A stretch of 64,000 bases of DNA from Escherichia coli (GCF_048403405.1 NZ_CP183131.1), one strand, 5' to 3'. Counted from the stretch's first letter, positions 22,452 to 42,151 are shown. A program made the numbers and translations. The notes: generated from the letters alone by a model not told the origin.

Positions 22452-22513
22452 ACGATAATTACGATAATTACGATAATTACGATAATTACGATAATACGGT
22501 AATTATCATAATT
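22452..22513 (+). repeat. tandem 9-bp repeats upstream of kfrA (candidate operator/centromere-like array)
   Basis: ACGATAATT x4, then ACGATAAT, ACGGTAATT, ATCATAATT. Contains the palindrome TAATTATCATAATTA. Starts 30 bp upstream of the kfrA start. Confidence 0.8.
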
Positions 22514-22642
22514 ATATATCATGCTGCTGTCGATTGGAATTGTTTGTGTGGGACAAAGCCCTTCCGGCTGCGGAAAAGCCTTGTTACGCGGTCACGCTGA
22601 TTCATCCAGGGGGAGCCCGCAGAATTCGGAAAAAATCGTACG

Positions 22643-24159
22643 CTAAGGTTTTCCGGGCATCCGTAAGGGCCGAAACTTCCCGTCTTCCAGTCTGCGGCTC
22701 TGCCGCCAGACGTAATCGCCGGTTAGGTTGATGTGCTCCCAGCCCAGCGGCGACAGGAATTGCAGCAGCTCGCCGTCCACCGGCTTGCCGGCCTCGACCA
22801 ACCCCTGGGTGGCGCGTTCCAGGTACACCGTGTTCCACAGCACGATAGCCGCCGTCACCAGGTTGAGGCCGCTGGCCCGGTAGCGCTGCTGCTCGAAGCT
22901 CCGATCCCTGATTTCCCCAAGGCGGTTGAAGAACACCGCCCTGGCCAGCGAGTTGCGCGCCTCACCTTTGTTCAGGCCGGCATGCACGCGGCGGCGCAGT
23001 TCAACACTTTGCAGCCAGTCCAGGATGAACAGCGTGCGCTCGATCCGGCCCAGCTCGCGCAGGGCCACGGCCAGTCCGTTCTGGCGCGGGTAGCTGCCGA
23101 GCTTGCGCAGCATCAGCGAGGCGGTGACGGTGCCCTGCTTGATCGAGCTGGCCAGGCGCAGGATGTCGTCCCAGTGGGCACGCACGTGCTTGATGTTCAG
23201 GGTGCCGCCGATCAGCGGGCGCAACGTCGGGTAGGCTTGCACGCCCTGCGGCACGTACAGCTTGGTTTCGCCGAGGTCGCGGATGCGCGGCGCGAAGCGG
23301 AAGCCTAGCAGGTGCATCAGGGCAAAGACGTGATCGGTGAAGCCGGCCGTGTCGGTGTAGTGCTCCTCGATCCGCAGGTCGGACTCGTGGTACAGCAGGC
23401 CGTCGAGCACATAGGTGGAATCGCGGACGCCGACATTCACCACGCGGGTGCTGAACGGCGCGTACTGGTCGGAGATATGGGTATAGAACAGCCGTCCCGG
23501 CTCGCTACCGTACTTCGGGTTGACGTGCCCGGTGCTCTCGCCCCGGCCACCCGCGCGGAAGCGCTGGCCATCGGAGGATGAGGTCGTGCCGTCGCCCCAG
23601 TGGGCGGCAAAGGCGTGGCGATACTGGTGGTTGACCAGCTCGGCCAAGGCCGCCGAATAGGTTTCGTCGCGGATGTGCCAGGCTTGCAGCCAGGACAGCT
23701 TGGCGTAGGTCAGGCCGGGGCTCGACTCGGCCATCTTGGTCAGCCCGAGGTTGATCGCATCACCGAGGATTGCGGACAGCAGCAACGTCCTGTCTTTGGC
23801 CTCGGCCCCGTCCTTCAAGTGGGTGAAGTGGCGGCTGAAGCCCGTCCAGTCGTCCACGTCCATCAGCAGTTCGGTGATCTTGATGCGCGGCAGTAACTGG
23901 CTGGTTTGGTCGATCAGCGCCTGCGCCCGATCCGGCACCGCCGCATCCAGCGGGGTGATTTTCAGCCCTGACTCGGTGAGGATGGCATCGGGCAGCTCGT
24001 TGTCCTTGGCCAGGCGGGTGACGGTGGCCAACTGCTCGTCCAGCAGCTGCAAACGCTCTTCCAGGTACTGGTCGCTGTTCGGGTTGATCGCCAGGGGCAG
24101 GGCCTGCTCGCGCTTGAGTGCGGCGAACTTCTCGGCCGGCAGCAGGTAGTCGTCGAAGT
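22643..24159 (-). pseudogene. tnpA: Tn3-family transposase tnpA, 5'-truncated by IS26
   Basis: About 505 C-terminal codons of a Tn21/Tn1721-subgroup TnpA, ending inside the IR as is typical. The N-terminal half is replaced by IS26 at 24160. Confidence 0.85.
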
Positions 24160-24979
24160 GGCACTGTTGCAAATAGTCGGTGGTGATAAACTTATCATCC
24201 CCTTTTGCTGATGGAGCTGCACATGAACCCATTCAAAGGCCGGCATTTTCAGCGTGACATCATTCTGTGGGCCGTACGCTGGTACTGCAAATACGGCATC
24301 AGTTACCGTGAGCTGCAGGAGATGCTTGCTGAACGCGGAGTGAATGTCGATCACTCCACGATTTACCGCTGGGTTCAGCGTTATGCGCCTGAAATGGAAA
24401 AACGGCTGCGCTGGTACTGGCGTAACCCTTCCGATCTTTGCCCGTGGCACATGGATGAAACCTACGTGAAGGTCAATGGCCGCTGGGCGTATCTGTACCG
24501 GGCCGTCGACAGCCGGGGCCGCACTGTCGATTTTTATCTCTCCTCCCGTCGTAACAGCAAAGCTGCATACCGGTTTCTGGGTAAAATCCTCAACAACGTG
24601 AAGAAGTGGCAGATCCCGCGATTCATCAACACGGATAAAGCGCCCGCCTATGGTCGCGCGCTTGCTCTGCTCAAACGCGAAGGCCGGTGCCCGTCTGACG
24701 TTGAACACCGACAGATTAAGTACCGGAACAACGTGATTGAATGCGATCATAGCAAACTGAAACGGATAATCGGCGCCACGCTGGGATTTAAATCCATGAA
24801 GACGGCTTACGCCACCATCAAAGGTATTGAGGTGATGCGTGCACTACGCAAAGGCCAGGCCTCAGCATTTTATTATGGTGATCCCCTGGGCGAAATGCGC
24901 CTGGTAAGCAGAGTTTTTGAAATGTAAGGCCTTTGAATAAGACAAAAGGCTGCCTCATCGCTAACTTTGCAACAGTGCC
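24160..24979 (+). mobile_element. IS26 (copy 1)
   Basis: 820 bp with 14-bp IRs GGCACTGTTGCAAA / TTTGCAACAGTGCC. tnp26 at 24223..24927 (234 aa). One nt differs from copies 2 and 3 (AGC vs GGC, giving ...CDHSKLK vs CDHGKLK). Confidence 0.95.
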
Positions 24980-25025
24980 TTTAAGCGTGCATAATAAGCC
25001 CTACACAAATTGGGAGTTAGACATC

Positions 25026-25625
25026 ATGAGCAACGCAAAAACAAAGTTAGGCATCACAAAGTACAGCATCGTGACCAACAGCAACGATTCCGTCACACTG
25101 CGCCTCATGACTGAGCATGACCTTGCGATGCTCTATGAGTGGCTAAATCGATCTCATATCGTCGAGTGGTGGGGCGGAGAAGAAGCACGCCCGACACTTG
25201 CTGACGTACAGGAACAGTACTTGCCAAGCGTTTTAGCGCAAGAGTCCGTCACTCCATACATTGCAATGCTGAATGGAGAGCCGATTGGGTATGCCCAGTC
25301 GTACGTTGCTCTTGGAAGCGGGGACGGACGGTGGGAAGAAGAAACCGATCCAGGAGTACGCGGAATAGACCAGTTACTGGCGAATGCATCACAACTGGGC
25401 AAAGGCTTGGGAACCAAGCTGGTTCGAGCTCTGGTTGAGTTGCTGTTCAATGATCCCGAGGTCACCAAGATCCAAACGGACCCGTCGCCGAGCAACTTGC
25501 GAGCGATCCGATGCTACGAGAAAGCGGGGTTTGAGAGGCAAGGTACCGTAACCACCCCATATGGTCCAGCCGTGTACATGGTTCAAACACGCCAGGCATT
25601 CGAGCGAACACGCAGTGATGCCTAA
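25026..25625 (+). CDS. aac(6')-Ib-cr: aminoglycoside/fluoroquinolone acetyltransferase AAC(6')-Ib-cr
   Basis: 199 aa, recognised sequence. Carries both cr substitutions: GDGRWEEE (Trp102Arg) and TTPYGPAV (Asp179Tyr). Confidence 0.9.
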
Positions 25626-25691
25626 CCCTTCCATCGAGGGGGACGTCCAAGGGCTGGCGCCCTTGGCCGCCCCTCATGTCAAACGTTGGGC
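25620..25691 (+). other. attC (59-be) of the aacA4 cassette
   Basis: GCCTAAC ... GTTGGGC inverse core/core sites with internal symmetry, 72 bp. Similar attC elements follow blaOXA-1 (about 26608-26695) and catB3 (about 27350-27415). Confidence 0.7.
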
Positions 25692-25755
25692 GAACCCGGA
25701 GCCTCATTAATTGTTAGCCGTTAAAATTAAGCCCTTTACCAAACCAATACTTATT

Positions 25756-26586
25756 ATGAAAAACACAATACATATCAACTTCGCTATTTTTTTAATAATT
25801 GCAAATATTATCTACAGCAGCGCCAGTGCATCAACAGATATCTCTACTGTTGCATCTCCATTATTTGAAGGAACTGAAGGTTGTTTTTTACTTTACGATG
25901 CATCCACAAACGCTGAAATTGCTCAATTCAATAAAGCAAAGTGTGCAACGCAAATGGCACCAGATTCAACTTTCAAGATCGCATTATCACTTATGGCATT
26001 TGATGCGGAAATAATAGATCAGAAAACCATATTCAAATGGGATAAAACCCCCAAAGGAATGGAGATCTGGAACAGCAATCATACACCAAAGACGTGGATG
26101 CAATTTTCTGTTGTTTGGGTTTCGCAAGAAATAACCCAAAAAATTGGATTAAATAAAATCAAGAATTATCTCAAAGATTTTGATTATGGAAATCAAGACT
26201 TCTCTGGAGATAAAGAAAGAAACAACGGATTAACAGAAGCATGGCTCGAAAGTAGCTTAAAAATTTCACCAGAAGAACAAATTCAATTCCTGCGTAAAAT
26301 TATTAATCACAATCTCCCAGTTAAAAACTCAGCCATAGAAAACACCATAGAGAACATGTATCTACAAGATCTGGATAATAGTACAAAACTGTATGGGAAA
26401 ACTGGTGCAGGATTCACAGCAAATAGAACCTTACAAAACGGATGGTTTGAAGGGTTTATTATAAGCAAATCAGGACATAAATATGTTTTTGTGTCCGCAC
26501 TTACAGGAAACTTGGGGTCGAATTTAACATCAAGCATAAAAGCCAAGAAAAATGCGATCACCATTCTAAACACACTAAATTTATAA
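25756..26586 (+). CDS. blaOXA-1: class D beta-lactamase OXA-1
   Basis: 276 aa starting MKNTIHINFAIFLIIANIIYSSASA. STFK and KTG motifs. Sequence recognised as OXA-1. Confidence 0.9.
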   Translation: MKNTIHINFAIFLIIANIIYSSASASTDISTVASPLFEGTEGCFLLYDASTNAEIAQFNKAKCATQMAPDSTFKIALSLMAFDAEIIDQKTIFKWDKTPKGMEIWNSNHTPKTWMQFSVVWVSQEITQKIGLNKIKNYLKDFDYGNQDFSGDKERNNGLTEAWLESSLKISPEEQIQFLRKIINHNLPVKNSAIENTIENMYLQDLDNSTKLYGKTGAGFTANRTLQNGWFEGFIISKSGHKYVFVSALTGNLGSNLTSSIKAKKNAITILNTLNL

Positions 26587-26723
26587 AAAATCTAATGGCA
26601 AAATCGCCCAACCCTTCAATCAAGTCGGGACGGCCAAAAGCAAGCTTTTGGCTCCCCTCGCTGGCGCTCGGCGCCCCTTATTTCAAACGTTAGACGGCAA
26701 AGTCACAGACCGCGGGATCTCTT

Positions 26724-27356
26724 ATGACCAACTACTTTGATAGCCCCTTCAAAGGCAAGCTGCTTTCTGAGCAAGTGAAGAACCCCAATATCAAAGTTGG
26801 GCGGTACAGCTATTACTCTGGCTACTATCATGGGCACTCATTCGATGACTGCGCACGGTATCTGTTTCCGGACCGTGATGACGTTGATAAGTTGATCATC
26901 GGTAGTTTCTGCTCTATCGGGAGTGGGGCTTCCTTTATCATGGCTGGCAATCAGGGGCATCGGTACGACTGGGCATCATCTTTCCCGTTCTTTTATATGC
27001 AGGAAGAACCTGCATTCTCAAGCGCACTCGATGCCTTCCAAAAAGCAGGTAATACTGTCATTGGCAATGACGTTTGGATCGGCTCTGAGGCAATGGTCAT
27101 GCCCGGAATCAAGATCGGGCACGGTGCGGTGATAGGCAGCCGCTCGTTGGTGACAAAAGATGTGGAGCCTTACGCTATCGTTGGCGGCAATCCCGCTAAG
27201 AAGATTAAGAAACGCTTCACCGATGAGGAAATTTCATTGCTTCTGGAGATGGAGTGGTGGAATTGGTCACTGGAGAAGATCAAAGCGGCAATGCCCATGC
27301 TGTGCTCGTCTAATATTGTTGGCCTGCACAAGTATTGGCTCGAGTTTGCCGTCTAA
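26724..27356 (+). CDS. catB3: xenobiotic (chloramphenicol) acetyltransferase CatB3, full length
   Basis: 210 aa, hexapeptide-repeat acetyltransferase, recognised as CatB3. It is not IS26-truncated here. Confidence 0.9.
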
Positions 27357-27440
27357 CAATTCAATCAAGCCGATGCCGCTTCGCGGCACGGCTTATTTCA
27401 GGCGTTATGCAGCCAAATCCCAACAATTAAGGGTCTTAAA

Positions 27441-27587
27441 ATGGTAAAAGATTGGATTCCCATCTCTCATGATAATTACAAGCAGGTGCAAGGACCGTTC
27501 TATCATGGAACCAAAGCCAATTTGGCGATTGGTGACTTGCTAACCACAGGGTTCATCTCTCATTTCGAGGACGGTCGTATTCTTAAG
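27441..27587 (+). pseudogene. arr-3: rifampicin ADP-ribosyltransferase arr-3, 3'-truncated by IS26
   Basis: First 49 codons (MVKDWIPISHDNYKQVQGPFYHGTKANL...) run directly into the IS26 IR at 27588. Confidence 0.8.
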
Positions 27588-28407
27588 GGCACTGTTGCAA
27601 AGTTAGCGATGAGGCAGCCTTTTGTCTTATTCAAAGGCCTTACATTTCAAAAACTCTGCTTACCAGGCGCATTTCGCCCAGGGGATCACCATAATAAAAT
27701 GCTGAGGCCTGGCCTTTGCGTAGTGCACGCATCACCTCAATACCTTTGATGGTGGCGTAAGCCGTCTTCATGGATTTAAATCCCAGCGTGGCGCCGATTA
27801 TCCGTTTCAGTTTGCCATGATCGCATTCAATCACGTTGTTCCGGTACTTAATCTGTCGGTGTTCAACGTCAGACGGGCACCGGCCTTCGCGTTTGAGCAG
27901 AGCAAGCGCGCGACCATAGGCGGGCGCTTTATCCGTGTTGATGAATCGCGGGATCTGCCACTTCTTCACGTTGTTGAGGATTTTACCCAGAAACCGGTAT
28001 GCAGCTTTGCTGTTACGACGGGAGGAGAGATAAAAATCGACAGTGCGGCCCCGGCTGTCGACGGCCCGGTACAGATACGCCCAGCGGCCATTGACCTTCA
28101 CGTAGGTTTCATCCATGTGCCACGGGCAAAGATCGGAAGGGTTACGCCAGTACCAGCGCAGCCGTTTTTCCATTTCAGGCGCATAACGCTGAACCCAGCG
28201 GTAAATCGTGGAGTGATCGACATTCACTCCGCGTTCAGCAAGCATCTCCTGCAGCTCACGGTAACTGATGCCGTATTTGCAGTACCAGCGTACGGCCCAC
28301 AGAATGATGTCACGCTGAAAATGCCGGCCTTTGAATGGGTTCATGTGCAGCTCCATCAGCAAAAGGGGATGATAAGTTTATCACCACCGACTATTTGCAA
28401 CAGTGCC
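27588..28407 (-). mobile_element. IS26 (copy 2)
   Basis: 820 bp, perfect 14-bp IRs. tnp26 at 27640..28344 on the minus strand. Inverted relative to copy 1, direct relative to copy 3. Confidence 0.95.
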
Positions 28408-28729
28408 GTAATTATTTAGGATATAGCTCTGTGATTTAGTCTTTTTAGGGCGTTTATTTATGTCTTTATGCTGTAATGTCGGTGCTGATTTGGTCTTCAA
28501 TAAGGCGATTTTTAGCCCGCTTTTTCCGGGGGGATGAAATGTTATTGGATTGCTAAATGATTTCAAAAAAGGGGTAACATAGAGCGGGGATTAGTGTGGC
28601 GAGGCGCAGGTTTCCGATGGCAGGCTAAACGCAAAAAATGCGCTTTTTAGCCGGTGATGAGGTGAGGCCGGGAGGGGATGCGTCGCCGATCACAGTTTAC
28701 AACAGGGTTTGATAACGGGAGGAAAAGTC

Positions 28730-29146
28730 ATGCTGCAGGGATTGAATCATCTGACGCTGGCGGTCAGCGATCTGGCGTCAAGCCTGGCATTTTATCAGCA
28801 GTTACCTGGAATGCGCCTGCACGCCAGCTGGGATAGCGGAGCCTATCTCTCCTGTGGGGCGCTGTGGCTGTGCTTGTCGCTGGATGAGCAGCGGCGTAAA
28901 ACGCCCCCTCAGGAAAGCGACTATACCCACTACGCCTTCAGCGTGGCGGAAGAAGAGTTTGCCGGGGTGGTGGCTCTGCTGGCGCAGGCGGGGGCTGAGG
29001 TATGGAAAGATAACCGCAGTGAAGGGGCGTCTTACTATTTTCTCGACCCTGACGGCCATAAGCTGGAGCTGCATGTGGGGAATCTGGCGCAGCGGCTGGC
29101 CGCCTGTCGCGAACGCCCCTACAAGGGGATGGTCTTTTTTGATTGA
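28730..29146 (+). CDS. fosA3: fosfomycin glutathione S-transferase FosA3
   Basis: 138 aa ([34 protein letters not shown]...). Recognised as FosA3, in the usual IS26-bounded context with Kluyvera-derived orf1, orf2 and truncated orf3. Confidence 0.9.
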
Positions 29147-29150
29147 CGGG

Positions 29151-29669
29151 TTAGTTCAGCTTACTGCCGGATTTCAACGTGCAGATCCACAGCGGTGAAT
29201 TGATAGAGCTGAGCAAGATAGCCTTTTCGTTGAGCTTCTGAGCGTTGAGAAACAGCCCGTCGTGGCTGTCGGACATCTCGCGCATAAAGTAGTCGAAAAT
29301 CACGTTCGGCGATTCATCAATCGAGGAGGCGCTCGATTCCCACTGATTGATGCGGTAATGACGCTCGGTGGCCGAGATGCGTTTGCTGCTGTAGGTAAAC
29401 TTCACGTAGCGTTGCAGGTAGAGCCAGCCGGCGGCGGAGTCGGTGTAACCTTCGACCACCATCGAGCCCTTACCCTGCGCGCCAAAATTGAAGTGAATAT
29501 TGCCGTTAACGTTCTCTTTGTCCATGTTCTCAAAGCGCATGATGCCCTTAGTGGAACAGCTCATGACACCCGCGTTGTCGGCAGGCAGCAGCCGCCAGGC
29601 GCTAAACGCGGCGGCGGCAATAAATACCAGAACGCAGAGGGCAAAGAACGGACGCGGCGCGAGTCTCAT
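29151..29669 (-). CDS. hypothetical secreted/membrane-anchored protein (fosA3-module orf1)
   Basis: 172 aa with an N-terminal hydrophobic signal/anchor (FFALCVLVFIAAAAF). Fixed partner of fosA3 modules. Confidence 0.6.
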   Translation of the reverse strand: MRLAPRPFFALCVLVFIAAAAFSAWRLLPADNAGVMSCSTKGIMRFENMDKENVNGNIHFNFGAQGKGSMVVEGYTDSAAGWLYLQRYVKFTYSSKRISATERHYRINQWESSASSIDESPNVIFDYFMREMSDSHDGLFLNAQKLNEKAILLSSINSPLWICTLKSGSKLN

Positions 29670-30457
29670 TACGGCTTCCAGGAGTAGTAAAAGTAGTTAT
29701 CGCAATAGCTGAACGGGTTATCTTCATGCATGGCGCAGTGGGCAAGGAACACGCGCCCCAGCCCGTTGGTTTCGAGCCGATCGCCGTAGAAGAAAAGAAA
29801 ACGTTCACCGGGTTTACAGGCAATATTCAGCCGCTGGCGTACCTCATCGAAGTTTTTGCCGTAGGACTCTTCACTGACCGAACGTCGCATTTCATCGCTG
29901 GCCAGCAGTTCGCACTGGCTATGGCTGAGGCGGGTCAGCGCGATAGGCTGGGATTCACTGATGCCGACCAGACTGAAGGCAACCAGAAGCAGGGCAATGG
30001 TGAGCAAGCAGGCTCCGGCCATGTACCAGCACATCCCGCGAGCATGTGCGGAGCGCGGTGCGTCTGGCGTTGTCGTAACGGGCGGCGGTTCGGCAGGCGT
30101 CTGTTGTGGTGAAACCGGCGGCGCGTCGTCCAGCGCTTCGATAATGACCTCGGGATTAAGCTGCAAATAGCCGCGCGAGACGGTGACGATGATGTTATCG
30201 ACGCCGTAATGGCGAAAGGTCTTCCGCAGCATGCTGAGATACTGATTCAGATTGCTGTTGGATGAGGTTAATCCATTGTCATCCCAGACTTTTTTCAGAA
30301 CATCTTCCCGGCTGACAATCTCGGTATGGCGCAGAAAATAGTTAAACAGGGCGCTGGCGGTGAGGGATAGCTGGCTGTCCGGTTCATCGCTTTGCGGCAG
30401 CGTCAGGGTTCCGTCGGTGGCGTCGTAGATAAAACGGGCATTGATGTTGTAGCGCAT
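29669..30457 (-). CDS. CadC/ToxR-like membrane-bound winged-helix regulator (fosA3-module orf2)
   Basis: 262 aa. N-terminal OmpR/PhoB-type winged helix (LTASALFNYFLRHTEIVSREDVLKKVWDD...VSRGYLQL), a central TM helix, and a periplasmic C-terminus. Confidence 0.65.
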   Translation of the reverse strand: MRYNINARFIYDATDGTLTLPQSDEPDSQLSLTASALFNYFLRHTEIVSREDVLKKVWDDNGLTSSNSNLNQYLSMLRKTFRHYGVDNIIVTVSRGYLQLNPEVIIEALDDAPPVSPQQTPAEPPPVTTTPDAPRSAHARGMCWYMAGACLLTIALLLVAFSLVGISESQPIALTRLSHSQCELLASDEMRRSVSEESYGKNFDEVRQRLNIACKPGERFLFFYGDRLETNGLGRVFLAHCAMHEDNPFSYCDNYFYYSWKP

Positions 30458-30476
30458 CGCGGCCTCAGTCTGTGCT

Positions 30477-30904
30477 TCACGCGGGAAGCGTCATTTTATT
30501 CAGGGAGTCAACCAGCGCGCGACGGTGGTCGGCGCTCATGGTGATCCCTTCCGTCAACTCCGAAAGCCAGATGCCGTCAGCGGCGTAGCGCACCAGCGTG
30601 CCGGTTGGGCTGTTATCCAGCTCATCGCCCTGCGCCAGTTTCTCCAGCATCCAGTCGCGCCAGCATTTGCGCAGCACCGGTTCATCGGGCATTGCCAGCG
30701 ACAAAACCATAAGCTGGCGGCTTTCATGGGTGTCCGTGAGATCCGCCAGATAGTTCAGATAGGCGCGGGTAAACCGGCCATAGCTCACGCCATCCTGTTG
30801 CATCAGCGCGGTAATCGCTTCTTCCATGATTGCCAGCAGACGCGCGAACAGGGCGAATATTAGCGCCTGCTTGTTCGGGAAATGGTGGATAAGGCCGCCT
30901 TTAC
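30477..30904 (-). pseudogene. TetR-family regulator, 5'-truncated by IS26 (fosA3-module orf3 remnant)
   Basis: Only the C-terminal ligand-binding part plus the tail of the HTH (HHFPNKQALIFALF) remains. The apparent N-terminus of the track ORF is IS26 IR sequence. Confidence 0.7.
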
Positions 30905-31724
30905 GGCACTGTTGCAAAGTTAGCGATGAGGCAGCCTTTTGTCTTATTCAAAGGCCTTACATTTCAAAAACTCTGCTTACCAGGCGCATTTCGCCCAGGG
31001 GATCACCATAATAAAATGCTGAGGCCTGGCCTTTGCGTAGTGCACGCATCACCTCAATACCTTTGATGGTGGCGTAAGCCGTCTTCATGGATTTAAATCC
31101 CAGCGTGGCGCCGATTATCCGTTTCAGTTTGCCATGATCGCATTCAATCACGTTGTTCCGGTACTTAATCTGTCGGTGTTCAACGTCAGACGGGCACCGG
31201 CCTTCGCGTTTGAGCAGAGCAAGCGCGCGACCATAGGCGGGCGCTTTATCCGTGTTGATGAATCGCGGGATCTGCCACTTCTTCACGTTGTTGAGGATTT
31301 TACCCAGAAACCGGTATGCAGCTTTGCTGTTACGACGGGAGGAGAGATAAAAATCGACAGTGCGGCCCCGGCTGTCGACGGCCCGGTACAGATACGCCCA
31401 GCGGCCATTGACCTTCACGTAGGTTTCATCCATGTGCCACGGGCAAAGATCGGAAGGGTTACGCCAGTACCAGCGCAGCCGTTTTTCCATTTCAGGCGCA
31501 TAACGCTGAACCCAGCGGTAAATCGTGGAGTGATCGACATTCACTCCGCGTTCAGCCAGCATCTCCTGCAGCTCACGGTAACTGATGCCGTATTTGCAGT
31601 ACCAGCGTACGGCCCACAGAATGATGTCACGCTGAAAATGCCGGCCTTTGAATGGGTTCATGTGCAGCTCCATCAGCAAAAGGGGATGATAAGTTTATCA
31701 CCACCGACTATTTGCAACAGTGCC
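30905..31724 (-). mobile_element. IS26 (copy 3)
   Basis: 820 bp, perfect IRs. tnp26 at 30957..31661. Flanks (GCCTTTAC / AAATGCTC) are not a target duplication. Confidence 0.95.
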
Positions 31725-32005
31725 AAATGCTCCTTAAGGAACTCGATGCGTACGCCGCGCTGGGTGAGGCCCTGCACCAGGCGGCGCAGGTCGTCGAGGT
31801 TGCGCGCCAGACGATCCATGCTGTGCACCACGACCGTGTCGCCTTCGCGCACGAAGGCGAGCAGCCGTTCCAGTTCGGGCCGCCGTGTGTCCTTGCCCGA
31901 CGCCTTGTCGGTGAACACTTTATCCACCTGGATCTGTTCGAGCTGCCGTTCTGGGTTCTGGTCGAAGCTGCTGACGCGGACGTAACCGATGCGCTGACCG
32001 TGCAA
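31725..32005 (-). pseudogene. tnpR: serine resolvase tnpR, 3'-truncated by IS26
   Basis: TTG start after AGGAGG. About 93 N-terminal codons with the catalytic GYVRVSSFDQ motif, cut by IS26. Confidence 0.8.
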
Positions 32006-32269
32006 GGTATCCTCCTGAGGGAAATGTGTCAGGAAGAAATCTATGACCCTTGACGGCGTATGTCAATCAATTCGGAAGGCAACTCTATTCTGACGATTTA
32101 GCGCCGGATGGTCTGACGCCAAGTTAGGGTATAGCCTAGATTGACATGCGCGATGCAACCCTTAACTTGCTTGCACCTATCGTTTCCATGCTAGCTTTAT
32201 CGTAACGCTCAAGAAATTGGGCTTAATGCCGAAAACAATAAAATAAAACAGCCAACCCTTGAGGTTCTT
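32006..32269. promoter_or_regulatory. res / divergent promoter region of the Tn1721-like element
   Basis: Intergenic region between divergent tnpR and mcp, where Tn21-subgroup res sites lie. Individual subsites were not resolved by eye. Confidence 0.5.
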
Positions 32270-32876
32270 ATGCGCCAGAATTTACCAGTGACGGGTCGAA
32301 ACTTAGAACTCCCAAAAGATGCCAATATTCTTTCGACTACCTCCCCTCAAAGCCATATCACGTACGTTAATCCTGACTTCATTAAAATCAGTGGTTTCAC
32401 TGAGGAAGAACTATTAGGCCAGCCTCACAACATCGTAAGACACCCAGATATGCCGCCTGCTGCATTTGAGCATATGTGGAGTACATTAAAATCTGGCCGC
32501 TCATGGATGGGGCTAGTAAAAAATCGCTGTAAAAATGGCGACCACTATTGGGTAAGTGCTTATGTAACGCCAATAGCTAAGAATGGTTCGATTGTTGAAT
32601 ACCAGTCTGTAAGGACCAAGCCTGAACCTGAGCAGGTTTTGGCTGCGGAAAAATTATATGCTCAATTGAGAAGCGGGAAGGCCGCGAGGCCGAAATTGGC
32701 TGCTAGCTTTTCCGTGAAAATACTCTTGCTCATATGGGGTAGTATTATATCAAGCGCAATGGCTGCCGGCATGCTTACTGATACATCAATAAGCAGCTTA
32801 TTGTTACCAGGAATCAACGCCTTTACCCGCTGCCGGAGCCTCACCTCAATAGCACTCTCCGGCAGCCGTATTGTTA
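32270..32876 (+). pseudogene. mcp: methyl-accepting chemotaxis protein (Tn1721 orfI-like), 5' part
   Basis: N-terminal PAS domain (FIKISGFTEEELLGQPHNIVRHPDMP...GDHYWVSAYVTPI) and first TM helix. Interrupted after 32876 by the ISEcp1 unit. Confidence 0.75.
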
Positions 32877-33971
32877 CAGCGAATCAAACTGATAGCTGAC
32901 CGATAGCCCAACGCCATAGTTACGGCCCGGCGCCGGTTCATAATAGCGTCCGTTGCTCTCGTTGACGATAACAGAGCCGACGTAGCGCTTATCAAACAGG
33001 TTATCAACGCGCGTATAGAGGTCGACGGTCCAGTTATCTAGCACATATTTATAGCCGGTATTCAGTGCCGTCACCGTATAGGCTGGAGCCTGCTCGCTAT
33101 TGGCATCGTTGACCTGAATATCGCTCATATAGCGGACTTCAGCGCCAGCGTACCATCCCTCTTCCGGCACCCAGCCAAAGGAGGCATAGGCGCTATTACG
33201 TGCAATCCCCGGGATCCGATTGCCGCTCTGAATAGCATCGCCGGCGTTTTCACGGTAGGTCGCATCCAGCAGCGTCCACGCCAGTTTGGCGCGCCAGGCG
33301 GGCGCAAATTGCTGATCCCATCCCAGTTCGACCCCGCGGCGGCGCGTCTTGCCCGCGTTCTGATAGGACGTACGGCCATTGTCGCTGGCGGCAACGACAA
33401 TTTCATTTTTCGTGTCCGTATTGAAGACGCTCAGGCTCGCCATCCCGGTGCCCACCTGCCATTTACTGCCTGCTTCAACGGTGGTGTTAGTGGCCGGTTG
33501 CAGAGCAAAGTTAAGCCCGGACTGACCATCGGGACGATAGGACAGCTCGTTAATGGTCGGCGTTTCAAATCCCCTCCCGGCAGAGAGGTAAACGTTCCAC
33601 TGCGGCGTCATGGCATACTTCAGCGCTGCCGCCGGAAGCCACTTGTGATAGCTCGCTTCGCCGCTATCATCACCATTTTTACCTACAACATAACGATCGT
33701 TGGAATCAAACCATACCGAGCTATAGCGCGCCCCGGCGTCCAGCCCCAGGGCTGAGGTGAGCTGCCAGTGCGTTTGAATGTAGGGATCGAGGTTCCACAT
33801 CAGGTTACGTTCGTTACGTCGCATATCACCTTTGGTGCCGAGATCGTAAACGCCGTTCTGATAAACAAAGTTCTCATAGCCTTTGCGCTGTTCGGTCATC
33901 GCCTCGTAATCAAGGCCGGTGGTGATGGCGTAAGGGATAAAACCGCTGTCATCGTGGTGTGTCCAGCGCGT
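32877..33971 (-). pseudogene. TonB-dependent outer-membrane siderophore receptor, C-terminal fragment (iroN-like)
   Basis: About 365 C-terminal codons of a beta-barrel receptor ending ...GVGLSVSYQF-DSL. The N-terminal part is removed by IS903 at 33972. Passenger DNA of the ISEcp1 unit. Confidence 0.75.
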
Positions 33972-35028
33972 GGCTTTGTTGAATAAATCAGATTTCGGGT
34001 AAGTCTCCCCCGTAGCGGGTTGTGTTTTCAGGCAATACGCACGCTTTCAGGCATACCTGCTTTCGTCATTTTGTTCAGCGCTCGTACCAGGGCCATAGCC
34101 TCCGCAACCTGACCATCGTAGTCACGCAGCGTCAGTGAACCCCCGAACAGCTGTTTTACCCGGTACATCGCCGTTTCCGCTATCGAGCGACGGTTGTAAT
34201 CTGTTGTCCATTTCCACCGCGCATTACTCCCGGTCATTCGCTGATTAGCCACTGCACGGTTACGGTCTGCATATTCACCGGGCCAGTAACCCGCACCTTT
34301 TCGGGGCGGGATAAGCGCGCTGATTTTCTTACGCCGCAGTTCATCGTGACAGAGCCGGGTATCGTAAGCTCCATCGGCGGCGGCTGACCTGATTTTCCGG
34401 TGGGTTTGCCGGATTAACCCGGGGAAGGCCTCTGAGTCCGTAACGTTGTTCAGCGACAGGTCAGCGCAGATGATTTCATGTGTTTTACTGTCAACTGCCA
34501 GATGCAGCTTACGCCATATACGACGGCGTTCCTGGCCATGCTTTTTGACTTTCCACTCGCCTTCACCGAAGACCTTCAGCCCGGTGGAATCAATTACCAG
34601 GTGTGCGATTTCACCCCGGGTGGGCGTTTTGAAACTGATATTAACCGACTTTGCCCGCCTGCTGACACAGCTGTAATCCGGGCAGCGTAGCGGAACGTTC
34701 ATCAGAGAAAAAATGGAATCAATAAAGCCCTGCGCAGCGCGCAGGGTCAGCCTGAATACGCGTTTAATGACCAGCACAGTCGTGATGGCAAGGTCAGAAT
34801 AGCGCTGAGGTCTGCCTCGTGAAGAAGGTGTTGCTGACTCATACCAGGCCTGAATAGCTTCATCATCCAGCCAGAAAGTTATGGAGCCACGGTTGATGAG
34901 GGCTTTATTGTAGGTGGGCCAGTTGGTGATTTTGAACTTTTGCTTTGCCACGGAACGGTCTGCGTTGTCGGGAAGATACGTGATCTGATCCTTCAACTCA
35001 GCAAAAGTTCGATTTATTCAACAAAACC
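33972..35028 (-). mobile_element. IS903-group element (IS5 family), 1057 bp
   Basis: Terminal IRs GGCTTTGTTGAATAAATCAG (33972-) and the reverse complement of GGTTTTGTTGAATAAATCGA (-35028). Transposase ORF 34028..34996 recognised as IS903/IS102-like. Confidence 0.9.
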
Positions 35029-36072
35029 TTTTTCTGGTTTCAGTACGCGAGATACGACAAATCTTCTGTCTTTTTCCCATTTAACTAATTTTGTATACAG
35101 TTCTGTAGTTTCTCTACCTTCTTCTCCTTTAACGAATACAATTGATGAATTCGTTGCTTGTGAGGTGAGTGTAGAATAACTTTTGGCTTTAATTAAATAT
35201 TTGCATCCAAGAGATTCTATCGTTTCGATAATTTTTTCATCAAAGTAGCCACTATCCATTCGAAATAAAATTTCTAAATCGTCTGATTTGATGTTAGCAA
35301 CAATTTCTTTGATCATTTCCGCAGCACCGTTTGCAGTGTAAGTATTGCCACTTCTTACAAATCCGGTAACATATGCTTTTAATTCGTCGCAAAATGCAAA
35401 TTGGATATTGTAGCATCGGTTTCCCAGTTTCTTAGGATTATATCCTTTTGACGCACCTTCTTGATGACCTTCTACGTTAATTACACTACTATCAATATCA
35501 ATCGTAATGGATGTCAATTTACTTTTAGTGAGCAGTTTTTTAAAGACTTTAAAATTAATGTCTCTAAACATTTGGGTTGTCTTGAAGTTGAAGTTTCCTA
35601 GAAACCGTGACACTGTTTCAGGTTCTTTTACGGAAATATCAAACTCGTTGACGAGGGGATCATTTTGAAGTAGCTTTAGACGTTCTAACTTATCAATGCC
35701 AATGAAGTGACCGCAGAGCATGGTCTTTATATGATTCATCTTGATTTTATTTGTTGAGTCATTATCAAATACGAGGTCATTTTCAATAAAATCAAAAATC
35801 CCATTGCTTTTTGCATTCTCAAGGAGCAGAAAAAGACCTGCATTTGATGTTAGATTCTTAGCTTTGAAATCAATTTTATTAATCATAATTAGAACCCCTT
35901 TTTACTACTTTTCTTACTATTATTTTACCATATATCGAGTCATAAAAGCTGATAATTTAACATATTTTTGAGCACTTTTCTTTCACCCAATGGGTGAAAG
36001 CTGAATTTCGAAGGAATGCATATTTATCAAGGCTTTGATTATGCTTTTTGAAGTACTGACGTAGAATCTAGG
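35029..36072 (-). mobile_element. ISEcp1 (IS1380 family), 3'-truncated by IS903
   Basis: IRL CCTAGATTCTACGTCAGTACTTCAAAAAGC ends at 36072. The transposase ORF (35014..35886, start at 35886) matches ISEcp1 Tnp (MINKIDFKAKNLTSNAGLFLLLENAK...) for about 286 of 420 codons, to the IS903 end at 35028/35029. Confidence 0.9.
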
Positions 36073-37118
36073 TGTTAGCCACTTTAATGTCAGGAAGCTT
36101 AAGCTCTGTTAGTGTTTTGGCTATTCTCTCTCCTCTTGGAAGACTGGTTGAAAGAGCCAGGAATATTTCCAATAACCCATTAAGTCAATCCCTCTACACT
36201 GGGCGCACCGATGAGTTTGGCCAAATAGAGTTTGCTTTACGAATGATGCAAGCTGAAACAGGCGCCATAGTAGGTCGCATAGGTGATGCATCAAATCGGC
36301 TTAGCGAACACACCCGAGGCCTACTAAAGGATATTGAGTCAAGCAATGTACTTACAGTTGAGCAGCAGGCAGAGACAGATCAAATAGCAACGGCAGTAAA
36401 CCAAATGGTGGCAAGCATTCAAGAGGTTGCGAGCAATGCACAGCATGCTGCAGATGCGGCCGGAAGAGCAGACACTGAGACGGCATCTGGCCAGCGTCTG
36501 GTAGCCCACACAAGCCAGTCAATCACTGCCCTTGAAGGTGAAATTAGGCAAGCCACTCAGGTTATTCATGAGCTTGAAGGTCAAAGTAACGAGATATCAA
36601 AAGTTCTTGACGTTATACGAGGGATCGCCGAGCAAACGAATTTGTTGGCACTCAACGCAGCAATTGAGGCCGCGCGTGCTGGTGAGCAGGGGCGTGGTTT
36701 TGCTGTTGTCGCCGATGAGGTTCGCAGTCTTGCTGCTCGCACACAGCAATCGACAACGGATATTCAAAGCATGATCAGCGCTCTACAAGAGCGAGCGCAA
36801 TCCGCTGTTACAGTCATGGAGCAAAGTAGTCGGCAAGCGCACACGAGTGTAGCTCACGCAGAGGAAGCAGCTACAGCTCTTGATGGAATTGGCCAACGCG
36901 TTAACGAAATTACCGACATGAACGCGCAAATAGCGACTGCGGTCGAGCAGCAGGGAGCAGTAAGTGAAGACATAAACCGCAGTATTATCAATATACGCGA
37001 TGCTGCTGATACCAATGTACAGACCGGGCAGAATAATTTGCAAAGTGCGAAATCTGTCGCTCAGTTAACTAGCGCTCTGAGCGAACTGGCAAAACAGTTT
37101 TGGGAAAAACGAGGATAA
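36073..37118 (+). pseudogene. mcp: methyl-accepting chemotaxis protein, 3' part
   Basis: TM2/HAMP and the highly conserved MCP signalling domain ([37 protein letters not shown]). The apparent GTG start of the track ORF is created by the ISEcp1 junction. Confidence 0.8.
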
Positions 37119-37265
37119 CGCTTTTCAGTATCTCGACAGGGATAACTTACTTTACCATCGGTTATCCCTTTTAGCCGCACAAATTTTAGCCATGGCTTTT
37201 CAGGAAGTCAGGGCTATCAGAATGGCCTTAGAAAGCCTAGTCAAAGAGCTGTCACGAGAACACCG

Positions 37266-38180: not shown

Positions 38181-38237
38181 GCTGCCGCCTATGTGTGGGT
38201 TTGTTCTAACAGTTCATTGGTTACATAGTAGACAGAT

Positions 38238-38459
38238 TTAGACCATCATGCAACGAGGGGGAGGGGCAAGAATACGCCTCCGCTTCGCGTCGGCGGGTGC
38301 CCTGTTTGACCTTCGTGTGTGAGATTAGATTGAGAAAGAGAGAGAAAGAGAGAAAAAGAGAGAAAGAAGAAAAGCGCGGGGCAAGCCAGAAATGTGGCTG
38401 AGGGGGACTGCTGGGGTGGGGCTGGCACCCTCTATACCCCACTTTGCATGATGGTCTAA
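38238..38459. repeat. 16-bp perfect inverted repeats enclosing G-rich and polypurine tracts
   Basis: TTAGACCATCATGCAA (38238-38253) and TTGCATGATGGTCTAA (38444-38459). Interior has GAGGGGGAGGGG, a polypurine run of about 55 nt (38321-38375, GAGAAAGAGAGAGAAAGAGAGAAAAAGAGAGAAAGAAGAAAAG) and GGGGTGGGGCTGG. Confidence 0.8.
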
Positions 38460-38504
38460 CTTTGTGGTTATAGGACGACTTTTAGAGTGCCTAGATTTGC
38501 TCGA

Positions 38505-38996: not shown

Positions 38997-39862
38997 TCCA
39001 AATTACCTTTGCTTTGAAGCTCCTGGAGCTGGACCACGAGGTCACGTTGGACTTTGGCTATCTCTGTCACCAAGTCGGCGGTGGCAATAGCGTCGGTCGC
39101 TGCTGAATGGGCTCGACCTTTCCAGCTCACACCTGCCTCGCAGGTGGCATCCGCAAGTGAGATTGTGCCGTGCCGGTTGGTTGAGCCAAAGGCATCAGCC
39201 GCCAGCTTCATCGCGCACAGACAGTTCTGCTCTTGCCACCAAGAGAGTTGGTCTCCAAATGCACTGGCTGTTTGCCTCAACATCCTACTGTCGAAACTGG
39301 AGTTAAATATCACCAGATGACGGCCCGACAAAAGCCGGGCGAGAGCTGGCGCAACTTGAGTCCACGTAGGCTCATTCGACAGCTCAGTCTCGGTGATGCC
39401 ATGAACACCCATTGCCTGAGGGTCTATTTCCACGGTTGGCCGTAATCTGGTGCAGAGGAGAACCGCGCCTCTGATGTCAGTAACAGCCAGCTCGATCACC
39501 TGGTCTCTTTCACCAAGTCCGGTCGTCTCGGTATCGAGAACCAGAGGTTCCAGAGCGACCCACCTTTGTGCCATGACAGAGGCCTTTGCCAGGTTGCTAC
39601 GCATTCTTGCCTTGACCGAAAGGATGGATTGCGCCCTTATTTGCTTTTGTGATGCCGGTGAACAACCCCTTCTCCGCATTGGTTGGCAATCTGCTATCCG
39701 GTACACTCCAAATTGGCCACCATACCCGTTTTTGTAGAACGAAACTGGCTCTACTCCTGGCTTAGGCTTCATCCGAAATTCGTCCCTGAGCCGTCCTTTT
39801 GAAAAGCACCTATCGGCTTTCATGGCTTCGGCTCTGGCAAGTTCGAGTTCTTCATCATTCAT
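38993..39862 (-). CDS. DEDDh 3'-5' exonuclease (DnaQ/epsilon-like) with N-terminal extension
   Basis: ExoI LVLDTETTGL, ExoII-like FNSSFDSRML and ExoIII HSAATDAIATADL motifs. 289 aa. Confidence 0.75.
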   Translation of the reverse strand: MNDEELELARAEAMKADRCFSKGRLRDEFRMKPKPGVEPVSFYKNGYGGQFGVYRIADCQPMRRRGCSPASQKQIRAQSILSVKARMRSNLAKASVMAQRWVALEPLVLDTETTGLGERDQVIELAVTDIRGAVLLCTRLRPTVEIDPQAMGVHGITETELSNEPTWTQVAPALARLLSGRHLVIFNSSFDSRMLRQTASAFGDQLSWWQEQNCLCAMKLAADAFGSTNRHGTISLADATCEAGVSWKGRAHSAATDAIATADLVTEIAKVQRDLVVQLQELQSKGNLE

Positions 39863-39866
39863 GCTG

Positions 39867-40877
39867 TTAATCCGCTATATCGAGGCGTTGGCTCGCTCTC
39901 TTCAAACGCTCATCGCCGCGTCTGTCATATTTCTGGGTAGTTGCAATGCTTGAGTGGCCCATTGCGTCCTTCACGGTCACAATATCCTCACCGTTATCCA
40001 GCATCGAGGAGGCAAAGGTGCGTCGCAGGTCATGGGGCGCAAACATCTCCAGACCGGCTTCAACTCTTCTGGTCTCCAAGATGTGGTAGATGGCCTGATC
40101 CGACATCCGCTCTCCAGTCACATCATCAAACCGCCTGATCCTCGGGAATAAAGGCCCTTCATGCGTTCCTCGAACCTCTTCAACCCACTTATCCAGTCTT
40201 TTCCATGCGCCACCAGGCACATACGCCATTCTCTCTTTGTTGCCCTTGCCAAGAACCTTGAGAGCGCGGTCCTTGTAGATCATGCTTCCCATGTCCAGCG
40301 CAACGATTTCCGAGCGGCGCAAGCCACACCCGAGGAGCACCCCGAGAATGGCCGCATCCCGAAGCCCTTTGGCGCTTGAATCACTTTCACATGTGAAAAA
40401 GAGGCTGCGAATCTCATGGCGTTCAAGTGCCCGCCCTTTAGGAAGTCGAGATCCACGTACTGAACGGACTTGCTTAATGTGCTGGAAGCTATCCGTATCA
40501 ATTTGCTTCATCGTCCAGGCTTCAAGAGCCACCCCTTTGAGCGCTGACAGGTAGGTGTTGATCGTTGCCGGAGCCTTCCCTGCATCCCCCAGCATTTCCA
40601 GCACCGCCAATATGTGGTGCCGCCTCATTGAGCTCCATGCACAGTCACGAAGGTTCTGAAACCCGATCATCTTGGCGACAATGTTGAGGAATGAGCTCAT
40701 GGTCTGCCTGCTTCGCTTTGACCCGAGGCTCACCAGATAGGCGACGGCGGGGTTGTCCTGGATGTTCCGGAGCGAGCTCGATGACGGCAACAGTTCACCG
40801 CGAATGCTTTGTTCTGCCGGAACATTTACTTTCGCATGTGAAACTAGCTCTTCCTTGTCATTGTTTGTGTCGTGCAA
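39867..40877 (-). CDS. int: tyrosine site-specific recombinase (XerC/D-like integrase)
   Basis: 336 aa. Catalytic region GLRRSE..., HDLRRTFAS and GHSSIATTQKYDRR (R-H-R-Y). Contains two copies of the parS-like palindrome in its coding sequence (40385-40398, 40840-40853). Confidence 0.8.
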   Translation of the reverse strand: MHDTNNDKEELVSHAKVNVPAEQSIRGELLPSSSSLRNIQDNPAVAYLVSLGSKRSRQTMSSFLNIVAKMIGFQNLRDCAWSSMRRHHILAVLEMLGDAGKAPATINTYLSALKGVALEAWTMKQIDTDSFQHIKQVRSVRGSRLPKGRALERHEIRSLFFTCESDSSAKGLRDAAILGVLLGCGLRRSEIVALDMGSMIYKDRALKVLGKGNKERMAYVPGGAWKRLDKWVEEVRGTHEGPLFPRIRRFDDVTGERMSDQAIYHILETRRVEAGLEMFAPHDLRRTFASSMLDNGEDIVTVKDAMGHSSIATTQKYDRRGDERLKRASQRLDIAD

Positions 40878-40879
40878 AG

Positions 40880-41416
40880 TTACCTCCTAAGCCCGACCGC
40901 AACGAGAAGAAAATCCCATATTTTGAGGTGAAGAGGTAGTTCCTCCTCCATATGTTGCGTTTCGTAGCTTTGCATCAGTGGTTCAAACTTGGTTGGATTG
41001 CACAGCAATTCGTAAACTGTTCGGTTGGGCTTGGTGATCGGCTTATTCGGAGTGAATCCATGTTTGTTCTGGAGGTACAGCGCTACCGCGCCACTTCTGG
41101 ATTCTCCGTAATAGCAATGAACGAAGATCTGATCGATACCGCTACCAACCAATCCATCCAGGAAGGTGGACAGCTTTTCAGCCTGGGATGAGTCAATGTA
41201 AGAGGCGTAATTCATCCGGAACGCTGCCTTCATCGTGTGGATGGTGTTCTCAGAATAGCCGCCGTCATAGAAGCTATCGCGGTACAACTGCCCCCACTGT
41301 CCGAGAGCGGCAGGGGACTTGTCTGGGTCAGTTATGGAGATCATGGCCGCACCGGGAACCGGCTCCAGTCTTTCGGCCTCCGCTTGACTAATGAAAAAGA
41401 CTTTTTTGCTAAGCAT
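40880..41416 (-). CDS. predicted CX5R phosphatase (tyrosine/dual-specificity phosphatase-like)
   Basis: 178 aa. Active-site-like VHCYYGESRSGAVAL (H-C-x5-R-S). Confidence 0.55.
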   Translation of the reverse strand: MLSKKVFFISQAEAERLEPVPGAAMISITDPDKSPAALGQWGQLYRDSFYDGGYSENTIHTMKAAFRMNYASYIDSSQAEKLSTFLDGLVGSGIDQIFVHCYYGESRSGAVALYLQNKHGFTPNKPITKPNRTVYELLCNPTKFEPLMQSYETQHMEEELPLHLKIWDFLLVAVGLRR

Positions 41417-41696
41417 GTCCCATCATCCCCTTACAAGGATGTGTTGCGAGTAGCTCACGCGCCTGACTTTGCCCCTCTTGAGTATCTACAGGAGCGGTCG
41501 TATACACACCTCCATGCCGCAAGTCCACAATACTGGTCCGACAGCAAGAACCTACGTTCTGAACTTTATTGTCCGAATCCAAACCAGCAAAAGTATGGCA
41601 CGGTCCAGGGAATGGTTTCCTGCAAATAGAGCAGCGCTCAAAGTTCTTATCGAGGATTCTCTTTAAAACTTTCTCAAATTTGTTTTTGTTTAACAT
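41409..41696 (-). CDS. small Cys-rich (zinc-finger-like) protein
   Basis: ATG 41696 follows GGAGAA. CSICRKPFPGPCH ... GSCCRTS cysteine pairs. 8-nt overlap with the downstream gene. Confidence 0.45.
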   Translation of the reverse strand: MLNKNKFEKVLKRILDKNFERCSICRKPFPGPCHTFAGLDSDNKVQNVGSCCRTSIVDLRHGGVYTTAPVDTQEGQSQARELLATHPCKGMMGHA

Positions 41697-41714
41697 CGAG
41701 TTCTCCACACAAAG

Positions 41715-42035
41715 TTACTGGCCGAGCATCCCAGCCAAGGTGGTCTGCTGGCCTTCGCTACAAGGTGCAAATCCGGCAAAAGCACCGGCATTAACCTTGA
41801 GCTCATCAAAGCGTCCATCGGTGTCCCGGTAGTACACCTTACGTTTTCCAATTCCACCTTCGAGGTTTGCGGCCAACCAGGCGATCACTGCATCAGCATC
41901 GTTCGTAACTGATGCTCCCTGATCCAGATCGATAAGTACCAGGTGGGTGTCCGTCTGGAGTGCCACTTCAAAGGTCGCTCTTACATCAAAAATCACTGGT
42001 CGCGCTCCTTGTAAAAAGTGGGCATTCAGCACCAC
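41715..42035 (-). CDS. hypothetical protein
   Basis: 106-aa ORF (GTG start in the track; true start uncertain). First gene after the divergent promoter region 42036-42257. Confidence 0.4.
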   Translation of the reverse strand: MVLNAHFLQGARPVIFDVRATFEVALQTDTHLVLIDLDQGASVTNDADAVIAWLAANLEGGIGKRKVYYRDTDGRFDELKVNAGAFAGFAPCSEGQQTTLAGMLGQ

Positions 42036-42116
42036 CTATCCTATTCCAAAAACTCTACTTTTTCAAAGATACATTTTAATAAGTAGAACAACAGCAAGAG
42101 GAACTCAAATTTATTT

Positions 42117-42151
42117 ACCGTAATTATCATAATTACGGTAATACGGTAATT
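42117..42151 (+). repeat. 9-bp repeat cluster related to the kfrA-upstream array
   Basis: ACCGTAATT ATCATAATT ACGGTAAT ACGGTAATT. Includes the 21-bp perfect palindrome CCGTAATTATCATAATTACGG (42118-42138). Lies in the divergent promoter region. Confidence 0.75.

Follow-up and report, generated by a model that had tools for sequence, protein, structure and literature searches.

What reads the two arrays of 9-bp repeats that bracket the tus, exonuclease and recombinase genes of IncC plasmids? We addressed this question in a 64,000-nucleotide stretch of DNA from Escherichia coli (NZ_CP183131.1, assembly GCF_048403405.1; the whole stretch is referred to here as the window), a region that matches about 1000 IncC and IncA plasmids at 90-100% identity, the best match being pIncC-L121 (IncC, Klebsiella pneumoniae). 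Array A lies at 22452-22513 on the minus strand, directly upstream of kfrA, and array B lies at 42115-42151, between two divergent genes. Sequence comparison leads us to propose, at a probability of roughly two in three, that the plasmid's own KfrA protein binds both arrays and that array A is the operator of kfrA. We strongly infer KfrA binding at array A and consider it plausible at array B.

Array A and the kfrA promoter

Re-reading the sequence confirmed both arrays at the positions, and with the units, that a first-pass annotation had given them. Array A holds seven 9-bp units (one of them of 8 bp), which on the top strand are four copies of ACGATAATT followed by ACGATAAT, ACGGTAATT and ATCATAATT, and which in the orientation of kfrA read AATTATGAT AATTACCGT ATTATCGT and then AATTATCGT four times. 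The units of array B at 42117-42151 are ACCGTAATT ATCATAATT ACGGTAAT ACGGTAATT. Tandem Repeats Finder assigned a period of 9 to both, with 7.3 copies and a score of 102 for array A, and 4.2 copies and a score of 39 for array B. The unit is more accurately described as a palindromic hexamer, TAATTA, joined to a variable triplet, YSR. The window holds 19 matches to its degenerate form AYSRTAATT where 2.6 would be expected, 16 of the 19 within the two arrays, and none of 100 shuffled sequences reached that number (the largest count was 7). The 15-mer TAATTATCATAATTA occurs exactly twice in the 64 kb, once per array and on the same strand. Scans of the window and of a complete 103.6-kb IncC plasmid found clusters of AATTAYSRT only at arrays A and B, and no third array appeared in IncC whole-plasmid scans. 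Both arrays are rich in TpA steps, with 23-27% G+C against 51% for the window.

The gene beside array A had been called KfrA-like, and its product indeed carries the Pfam domain KfrA_N (PF11740, 8.8e-23) at its N-terminus. The gene (21382-22422, minus strand) encodes 346 aa, family matches across residues 85-340 indicate a coiled-coil tail, and the start codon lies 30 bp from the end of array A. Two candidate promoters precede it on the minus strand, both with a 17-nt spacer: one, read from the sequence, combines TTCCAA (22539-22534) with TATAAT (22516-22511), and the other, from promoter prediction, combines TCGACA (22533-22528) with TATGAT (22510-22505). The -10 box of the first is conserved, as TAGAAT in IncA and as TATAAT in Photorhabdus. 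Since these candidate -10 boxes abut or fall within the first repeat unit, array A would span roughly -10 to +50 of the predicted promoters, taking in the -10 box, the probable start and the leader.

This arrangement has a close precedent in the IncU plasmid RA3, whose KfrA binds five 9-nt repeats, TGTATTGTA, at its own promoter, three overlapping the -35 box and two lying in inverted orientation beyond the -10 box, and represses it more than 200-fold (Lewicka et al. 2021, PMC7783346). A minimum of two adjacent repeats is required there, four give full repression, and KfrA binding is needed for stable inheritance, the protein also contacting the ParB-like KorB (PMC7783346). The 9-bp phasing, which had been regarded as unusual, is thus the norm in the KfrA family. 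Array A resembles the RA3 operator OK in its head-to-tail 9-nt repeats, some of them inverted, in their interleaving with the -35 and -10 boxes of the kfrA promoter, in having about five units, of which RA3 needs several adjacent ones, and in the KfrA_N head and coiled-coil tail of the protein. The unit itself differs, being TGTATTGTA in RA3 and AATTAYSRT around the palindromic TAATTA here; the RA3 motif occupies a single locus and occurs nowhere else in that plasmid, whereas IncA and IncC carry two arrays. The IncA/C arrays are also polymorphic in copy number in nature, and binding has been shown for RA3 while it is proposed here. The KfrA proteins of R751 and pPOP15.9 likewise bind iterated motifs, that of RK2 recognizes a 24-nt imperfect palindrome (PMC7783346), and in pPOP15.9 (Paenibacillus) two KfrA paralogues bind upstream of two genes on one plasmid (PMC4372654). 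These too are autoregulators acting on repeats upstream of their own genes, but their motifs are unrelated to TAATTA and IncP kfrA is additionally under the control of KorA and KorB. Array A would be a further operator of this known, iterated type; its unit is distinct and widespread, and the system is not of a new kind.

A possible geometry for such binding is offered by TubR, a helix-turn-helix protein that acts as a dimer and is proposed to insert its two recognition helices into a single major groove, coating an array of short direct repeats. TubR-tubC of pBtoxis has been invoked as a structural model for KfrA (PMC7783346), and one palindromic 6-bp TAATTA per dimer would suit a TubR-like geometry. 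Single-sequence AlphaFold prediction of the KfrA head gave no reliable model (predicted local distance difference test score of 60), a sequence search of the PDB with KfrA found nothing, and a literature search for the repeat sequences themselves returned nothing relevant.

The identification of KfrA as the binder draws mainly on an association between array and gene that holds when it is approached from either side. Starting from kfrA, AATTAYSRT-family repeats were found directly upstream of the gene in six IncA/C-like lineages: IncA (KfrA 93% identical in the N-terminal domain; four units whose triplets differ), Photorhabdus khanii (89%; five units after TATAAT), Photorhabdus bodei (70%; two or three units, again after TATAAT), a Shewanella profunda plasmid (98%; an array of different unit types), pAsa4b of Aeromonas (52% in the N-terminal domain; six units including a 33-bp palindrome) and the metagenomic contig L070 (about 37%; orf163-tus-kfrA synteny kept). 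The DNA flanking the kfrA arrays is not conserved in IncA, P. khanii, P. bodei, pAsa4b or L070, and IncA, at 86-90% identity, retains the arrays amid intergenic DNA that has diverged beside them. In the 182-kb pAsa4b the kfrA array is the only cluster; homologues of R55_128 and orf99, which belong to the array B neighbourhood in IncC, are absent from this plasmid, which still has its kfrA array, and its homologue of R55_196 (40% identical) lies elsewhere with no array beside it. The pAsa4b palindrome (contig L009, 15540-15572) reads ATCATAATTACGGT tattt ACCGTAATTATGAT and is built from the 14-bp half-site of IncC array B with the arms in opposite order. A profile scan of genome contigs with the KfrA alignment yielded three loci only, and a search for protein homologues returned mostly near-identical fragments; one lead (P0020/L022) was rejected as an error-rich IncC assembly.

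Starting from the array, we scanned metagenome and viral contigs for the pattern ATTAYSRTAATTAYSRTAATTA, which gave 192 loci, and KfrA was sought around them by six-frame profile search. Only the KfrA-linked subset was used as evidence, 107 of the 192 loci having a G+C content below 0.35. A KfrA-like gene was present at exactly seven loci, and in every one of them the array precedes the gene by 13-90 bp, the gene points away from the array, and the encoded protein passes the Pfam KfrA_N threshold (1e-17 to 1e-26). L070 is counted both here and among the six lineages above; the other six loci share no further similarity with IncC or pAsa4b in translated comparison, the loci not having been compared with one another. 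The seven range from 39 to 65% G+C. Promoter architecture recurs as well: at L139, TTGACA and TATGAT are separated by 16 nt and followed by AATTACGG (or, in a longer reading, by AATTACGGTAATTATCATAATTA), the layout seen in IncC, and at L142 the order TTGACA, ATTACCGTAATTACGAT, TATCAT interleaves the sigma-70 boxes with repeats. The 50 kfrA-linked units share the consensus A (84%), ATTA, Y (100%), S (88%), R (92%) and T (92%), and the proteins encoded beside kfrA arrays have in common a conserved stretch, GS-x-[ST]-T-[IV]-x-x-[YF]-[LM], which is their putative recognition region. Genes beside the other high-G+C pattern loci are heterogeneous.

Array B and the RecHS recombination site

Array B comprises four units, including a perfect palindrome that had been reported as 21 bp long; the palindrome is there but extends to 27 bp (42115-42141), with 13-bp arms, TTACCGTAATTAT c ATAATTACGGTAA. 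The flanking genes diverge, as first described. To the left lies the homologue of R55_128 (41715-42035, minus strand, with an annotated start at 41996; 93-106 aa), the first gene of a leftward operon, and to the right the homologue of R55_196 (42258-42860, plus strand; 200 aa), the sole rightward gene; neither has a family match. Two inverted repeats were described between the same two genes in the Mob 2 region, IR1 being perfect, with 13-bp arms around a 1-bp spacer, and IR2 imperfect, with 14-bp arms and a spacer of 6; 27 bp separate the two (Hegyi et al. 2017, PMC5587640). By its geometry array B is IR1, with the same sequence: arms, spacers, gap and flanking gene numbers match exactly, the comparison being one of geometry rather than of coordinates. 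The numbering of the neighbouring recombinase as R55_130 (PMC10954446) fits this identification. IR2, which is the published site-specific recombination site RecHS, falls at 42054-42087, has the spacer of 6 and the gap of 27 bp to IR1, and stands outside the repeat family.

This identity bears directly on the suggestion that the arrays might be recombination targets. Published deletions showed IR1 to be dispensable and IR2 to be required for RecA-independent cointegrate formation, and a minimal 56-bp RecHS lacking IR1 is fully active (PMC5587640). The suggestion is not supported, the real site being RecHS, 27 bp away; the centre of array B, moreover, is 1 bp, where a recombination core would have arms around a 6-8 bp crossover spacer. 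The earlier study saw a lone palindrome with an unknown role, and the 9-bp repeats, the extra units, the copy-number variation and the kinship with the kfrA array are not described there. Array B is probably a second KfrA site, and we reinterpret the published IR1 in this way from several likenesses to array A. Its units in both IncC and IncA fit the AATTAYSRT consensus of the kfrA-linked units; a 23-bp block, AATTACCGTATTAYCGTAATTAT, is common to arrays A and B on the same strand; the Shewanella profunda plasmid has array-B-type units at site A; and an 8-bp unit, ATTACCGT, duplicates independently at the two sites. The IncA array B keeps four units with changed triplets while the neighbouring spacer DNA has diverged, and the arms of its palindrome have changed jointly, from ACCG...CGGT to ACGG...CCGT.

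A candidate rightward promoter for the R55_196 homologue (plus strand) combines TTTACA (42151-42156), a 16-nt spacer and TATAAG (42173-42178) with a TG at 42170-42171; promoter prediction gave a neighbouring register. The last unit of array B touches this -35 box, and the -10 region TGGTATA is conserved in IncA. A leftward promoter for the operon running from R55_128 to the recombinase is predicted from TTGAAA (42066-42061), a 17-nt spacer and TAGGAT (42043-42038) on the minus strand, and inspection of the sequence of array B itself revealed no convincing leftward promoter. The leftward -35 box sits within the left arm of the IR2/RecHS core, so that bound recombinase could repress its own operon, as the D protein does at rfsF of the F plasmid. 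In pAsa4b the RecHS core is conserved beside a recombinase 75% identical to that of IncC, with no array there, which makes array B an addition of IncA and IncC.

The KfrA reading and its alternatives

The proposal of KfrA operators, one of those offered by the first-pass annotation, is well supported for array A by its position, the RA3 precedent and the co-occurrence with kfrA in both directions, and is plausible for array B by unit consensus and the shared 23-bp block. Several points weigh against it. Most of the 192 pattern matches, in AT-rich DNA, are probably chance. Arrays of identical units also occur in inovirus-like contigs (L060, L168, L187, L173, L195, L212) with no KfrA gene in the DNA examined, and the TAATTA motif is consequently not exclusive to KfrA. 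Array B has no counterpart outside IncA and IncC, pAsa4b possessing kfrA, RecHS and the recombinase yet only one array, so that the assignment of array B to KfrA is a matter of sequence likeness. Deletion of the RecHS region or of R55_128 left conjugation unaffected (PMC5587640), and binding, footprint, reporter or start-site data for IncC KfrA were not found in the searchable literature. Two further points concern H-NS: ACGATAATT resembles the high-affinity H-NS motif tCGATAAATT, from which it is one base deletion apart (Lang et al. 2007, PMC2094087), and IncC encodes a constitutive H-NS-like repressor, Acr2 (PMC4207636). As observations in their own right, the inovirus-like contigs, recognized by secretin and Zot-like genes, hold three to six perfect copies of ACGATAATT in intergenic DNA (2992-3047 in L168), the number differing by contig, and encode a 135-aa helix-turn-helix-like protein about 550 bp from the array.

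These last points open the first alternative, in which the arrays would be high-affinity nucleation sites for H-NS or Acr2 that silence the adjacent promoters, KfrA not being the main binder. The likeness to the H-NS motif extends to its AT-richness, the CGATAA within it and the central TpA step, and the low G+C of the arrays in a 51% G+C backbone agrees with it. We consider this unlikely, because the H-NS motif is 10 bp rather than 9, is not known to occur in phased tandem arrays or to be tied to one gene family, and because H-NS sites are not known to require an exact 9-bp phasing. The array, moreover, tracks kfrA across hosts of 39-65% G+C, including elements unlinked to IncC, and the IncC backbone, more than 100 kb long, holds just two clusters despite many other AT-rich intergenic regions.

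A second alternative, to which we give similarly little credence, treats array B as an accessory sequence of the RecHS system, where a bound protein would shape the synapse so that the XerC-like recombinase favours resolution of multimers over fusion of plasmids, the likeness to array A being secondary. Array B does stand at the head of the tyrosine recombinase operon, with exactly 27 bp between it and the RecHS core, and the assay that found IR1 dispensable scored intermolecular cointegrates rather than resolution selectivity (PMC5587640); the idea is also compatible with KfrA as the architectural protein. The conserved RecHS core and recombinase of pAsa4b with no array nearby argue against it, as does the full activity of the minimal RecHS, and nothing ties array A to recombination.

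More doubtful still is that another plasmid regulator, the R55_196 product or an unrecognised DNA-binding protein, reads the repeats and controls both kfrA and the divergent promoters as a small regulon. R55_196 adjoins array B and has its homologue in pAsa4b, and the inovirus-like contigs combine the unit with a small helix-turn-helix-like protein rather than KfrA. Against this, R55_196, R55_128, orf99, orf178 and orf163 have no match to a DNA-binding family, the promoter of the R55_196 homologue in pAsa4b lacks an array, and at the seven metagenomic loci kfrA and the array are the only common feature identified.

Variation in the arrays raises a further alternative, that they are functionless AT-rich microsatellites persisting by slippage. 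The annotation had proposed comparing copy number among IncA/C sequences, and for array A we sampled 60 evenly spaced records out of 942 that matched. Unit numbers in this survey, which used evenly spaced samples, were inferred from the span of the match, and six alleles were read base by base. Two records had a span of 146 bp (3 units), 31 of 154 bp (4 units), 19 of 163 bp (5 units), three of 172 bp (6 units) and one of 181 bp (7 units); one of 155 bp was not assigned, and three were partial matches. The seven-unit allele of the window is rare (15 records in the top identity band). Array B splits roughly evenly between four units and five, an additional 8-bp unit making up the fifth, and the two sites vary independently. 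Copy number therefore does vary, from 3 to 7 units at A and from 4 to 5 at B, but it never falls below three in the full-length matches read or measured. The directly read alleles have gained or lost whole units, the smallest having three hexamers, and one 8-bp unit is present in every IncA, IncC and P. khanii array of at least four units and absent from two three-unit IncC alleles. Polymorphism at both sites is what slippage would give; however, the arrays are kept in IncA amid diverged intergenic DNA and also in front of kfrA genes whose products are 37-52% identical, every fully read allele has at least three units, and unit positions 6-9 are constrained to YSRT, which makes a lack of function very improbable.

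The weakest alternative, that the arrays are ParAB centromeres or recombinase targets, starts from their place in a maintenance region with ParB cores nearby at 19558 and 40385, and it is highly improbable, since IncC ParB sites defined by gel shift are 22-bp inverted repeats with the core TTTCACATGTGAAA, unrelated to the repeat unit (PMC10954446), IR1 fragments without an intact IR2 did not recombine (PMC5587640), and the 5-kb block between the arrays is retained in the plasmids where it was examined. The earlier notion of a centromere-like array is thus not supported in the ParB sense. Like the arrays, IncC parS consists of short repeated protein-binding sites with a maintenance role in the same backbone, but it has the TTTCACATGTGAAA core, occurs as 12-14 dispersed single copies and has demonstrated ParB binding (PMC10954446). 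In the window such cores lie at 1561, 2640, 12830, 19558, 40385 and 40830, five exact and one (40830) with one mismatch; none is in an array, two are inside the recombinase gene between the arrays, and one is 2.9 kb to the left of array A. We rejected a parS identity of the arrays on this ground, the 22-bp inverted repeat with TTTCACATGTGAAA not being found in them, and rejected likewise a reading as Ter sites, the Tus-Ter sequence GNRNGTTGTAAYKA having no match in the window at up to one mismatch. A role of KfrA in anchoring the plasmid for segregation, by analogy with RA3, is possible.

Two marine metagenomic contigs, L097 (about 9623-9700) and L136 (about 8440-8500), have a TAATTA 9-bp array about 20 bp from an exact IncC-type ParB core and no other similarity to IncC, which hints at a recurring pairing of KfrA and ParB sites. 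A secreted-looking protein is encoded beside the array in both L082 and L136.

The surrounding backbone and the biology of IncC plasmids

In the native backbone, represented by pSD_174, the genes all run leftward in the order R55_128 homologue, orf99, orf178, XerC-like tyrosine recombinase, 3'-5' exonuclease, orf163, tus, kfrA, orf92, UvrD-like helicase, traF, traH and traG. As had been noted, arrays A and B bracket tus, the exonuclease and the recombinase in island-free plasmids, where they are 4.9 kb apart. The recombinase (R55_130, XerC/XerD-like; 39867-40877, minus strand) is the candidate RecHS enzyme, and its gene contains a ParB core at 40385-40398. In the window, tus and the kfrA promoter are separated by an inserted resistance island of about 14.7 kb (22613-37265), which increases the spacing between the arrays to about 19.6 kb. 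Its insertion point, a few codons before the end of tus, has altered the C-terminus of Tus (304 aa against 291 aa). The island starts with a Tn3-family terminal repeat, GGGGAGCCCGCAGAATTCGG, and carries a truncated Tn3-family transposase, blaOXA-1, catB, and IS5 and truncated IS1380 transposases; genes for a TonB receptor and a chemotaxis receptor are present in it as fragments.

Just 3' of tus and 5' of the kfrA promoter, at 22550-22600, is a hairpin with TTTGT behind it. This hairpin was absent from the output of the terminator scan; its stem shows compensating changes in the Shewanella and Photorhabdus relatives, and it is probably the tus terminator, which suggests that kfrA has its own promoter, as in RA3. 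Two other tandem repeats were seen in the window, a purine-rich one, GAGAAAAAGAGAGAAAGA (2.4 copies, 38332-38373), between tus and orf163, and a 23-bp one, CCGTGCAACGTACCCATAGGTTG (2.7 copies, 5213-5274).

If KfrA is the protein that reads the arrays, we envisage that several dimers would sit side by side on the TAATTA hexamers of array A at 9-bp spacing, and that, with hexamers running from the -10 box some 50 bp into the leader, bound KfrA would block RNA polymerase and shut off kfrA. The same complex would probably also serve as an attachment point for stable inheritance, as shown for RA3. Replication slippage would change the number of units, 3 to 7 in nature, and may in this way tune the strength of repression. 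Array B would have arisen in the IncA/IncC lineage as a second KfrA site, where, by the -35 box of R55_196 and 27 bp from RecHS, it may repress the divergent promoters, modulate them, or bring KfrA next to the resolution site. A more speculative extension, which we hold to be improbable, is that KfrA on both arrays bridges them through its coiled-coil tails, drawing tus, the exonuclease, the recombinase with its ParB site, and RecHS into a loop of about 5 kb. Were this so, a single nucleoprotein body would link kfrA expression with multimer resolution and ParB-dependent partition, its stability would be set by the number of units at either end, and with the 14.7-kb island in place the loop would measure about 20 kb.

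IncC plasmids rank among the major carriers of multidrug resistance, and the functions that maintain them are only partly mapped. Our findings provide a candidate operator for IncC KfrA and would explain the orphan palindrome IR1 reported in 2017. Unlike RA3, IncA and IncC plasmids would then have two KfrA sites, one of them beside the multimer-resolution site. The copy-number polymorphism could be developed as a typing marker and may represent a natural series relating repeat number to repression. The KfrA specificity class proposed here, TAATTA repeated every 9 bp, appears to reach beyond IncA/C into high-G+C hosts, and may aid the annotation of kfrA promoters.

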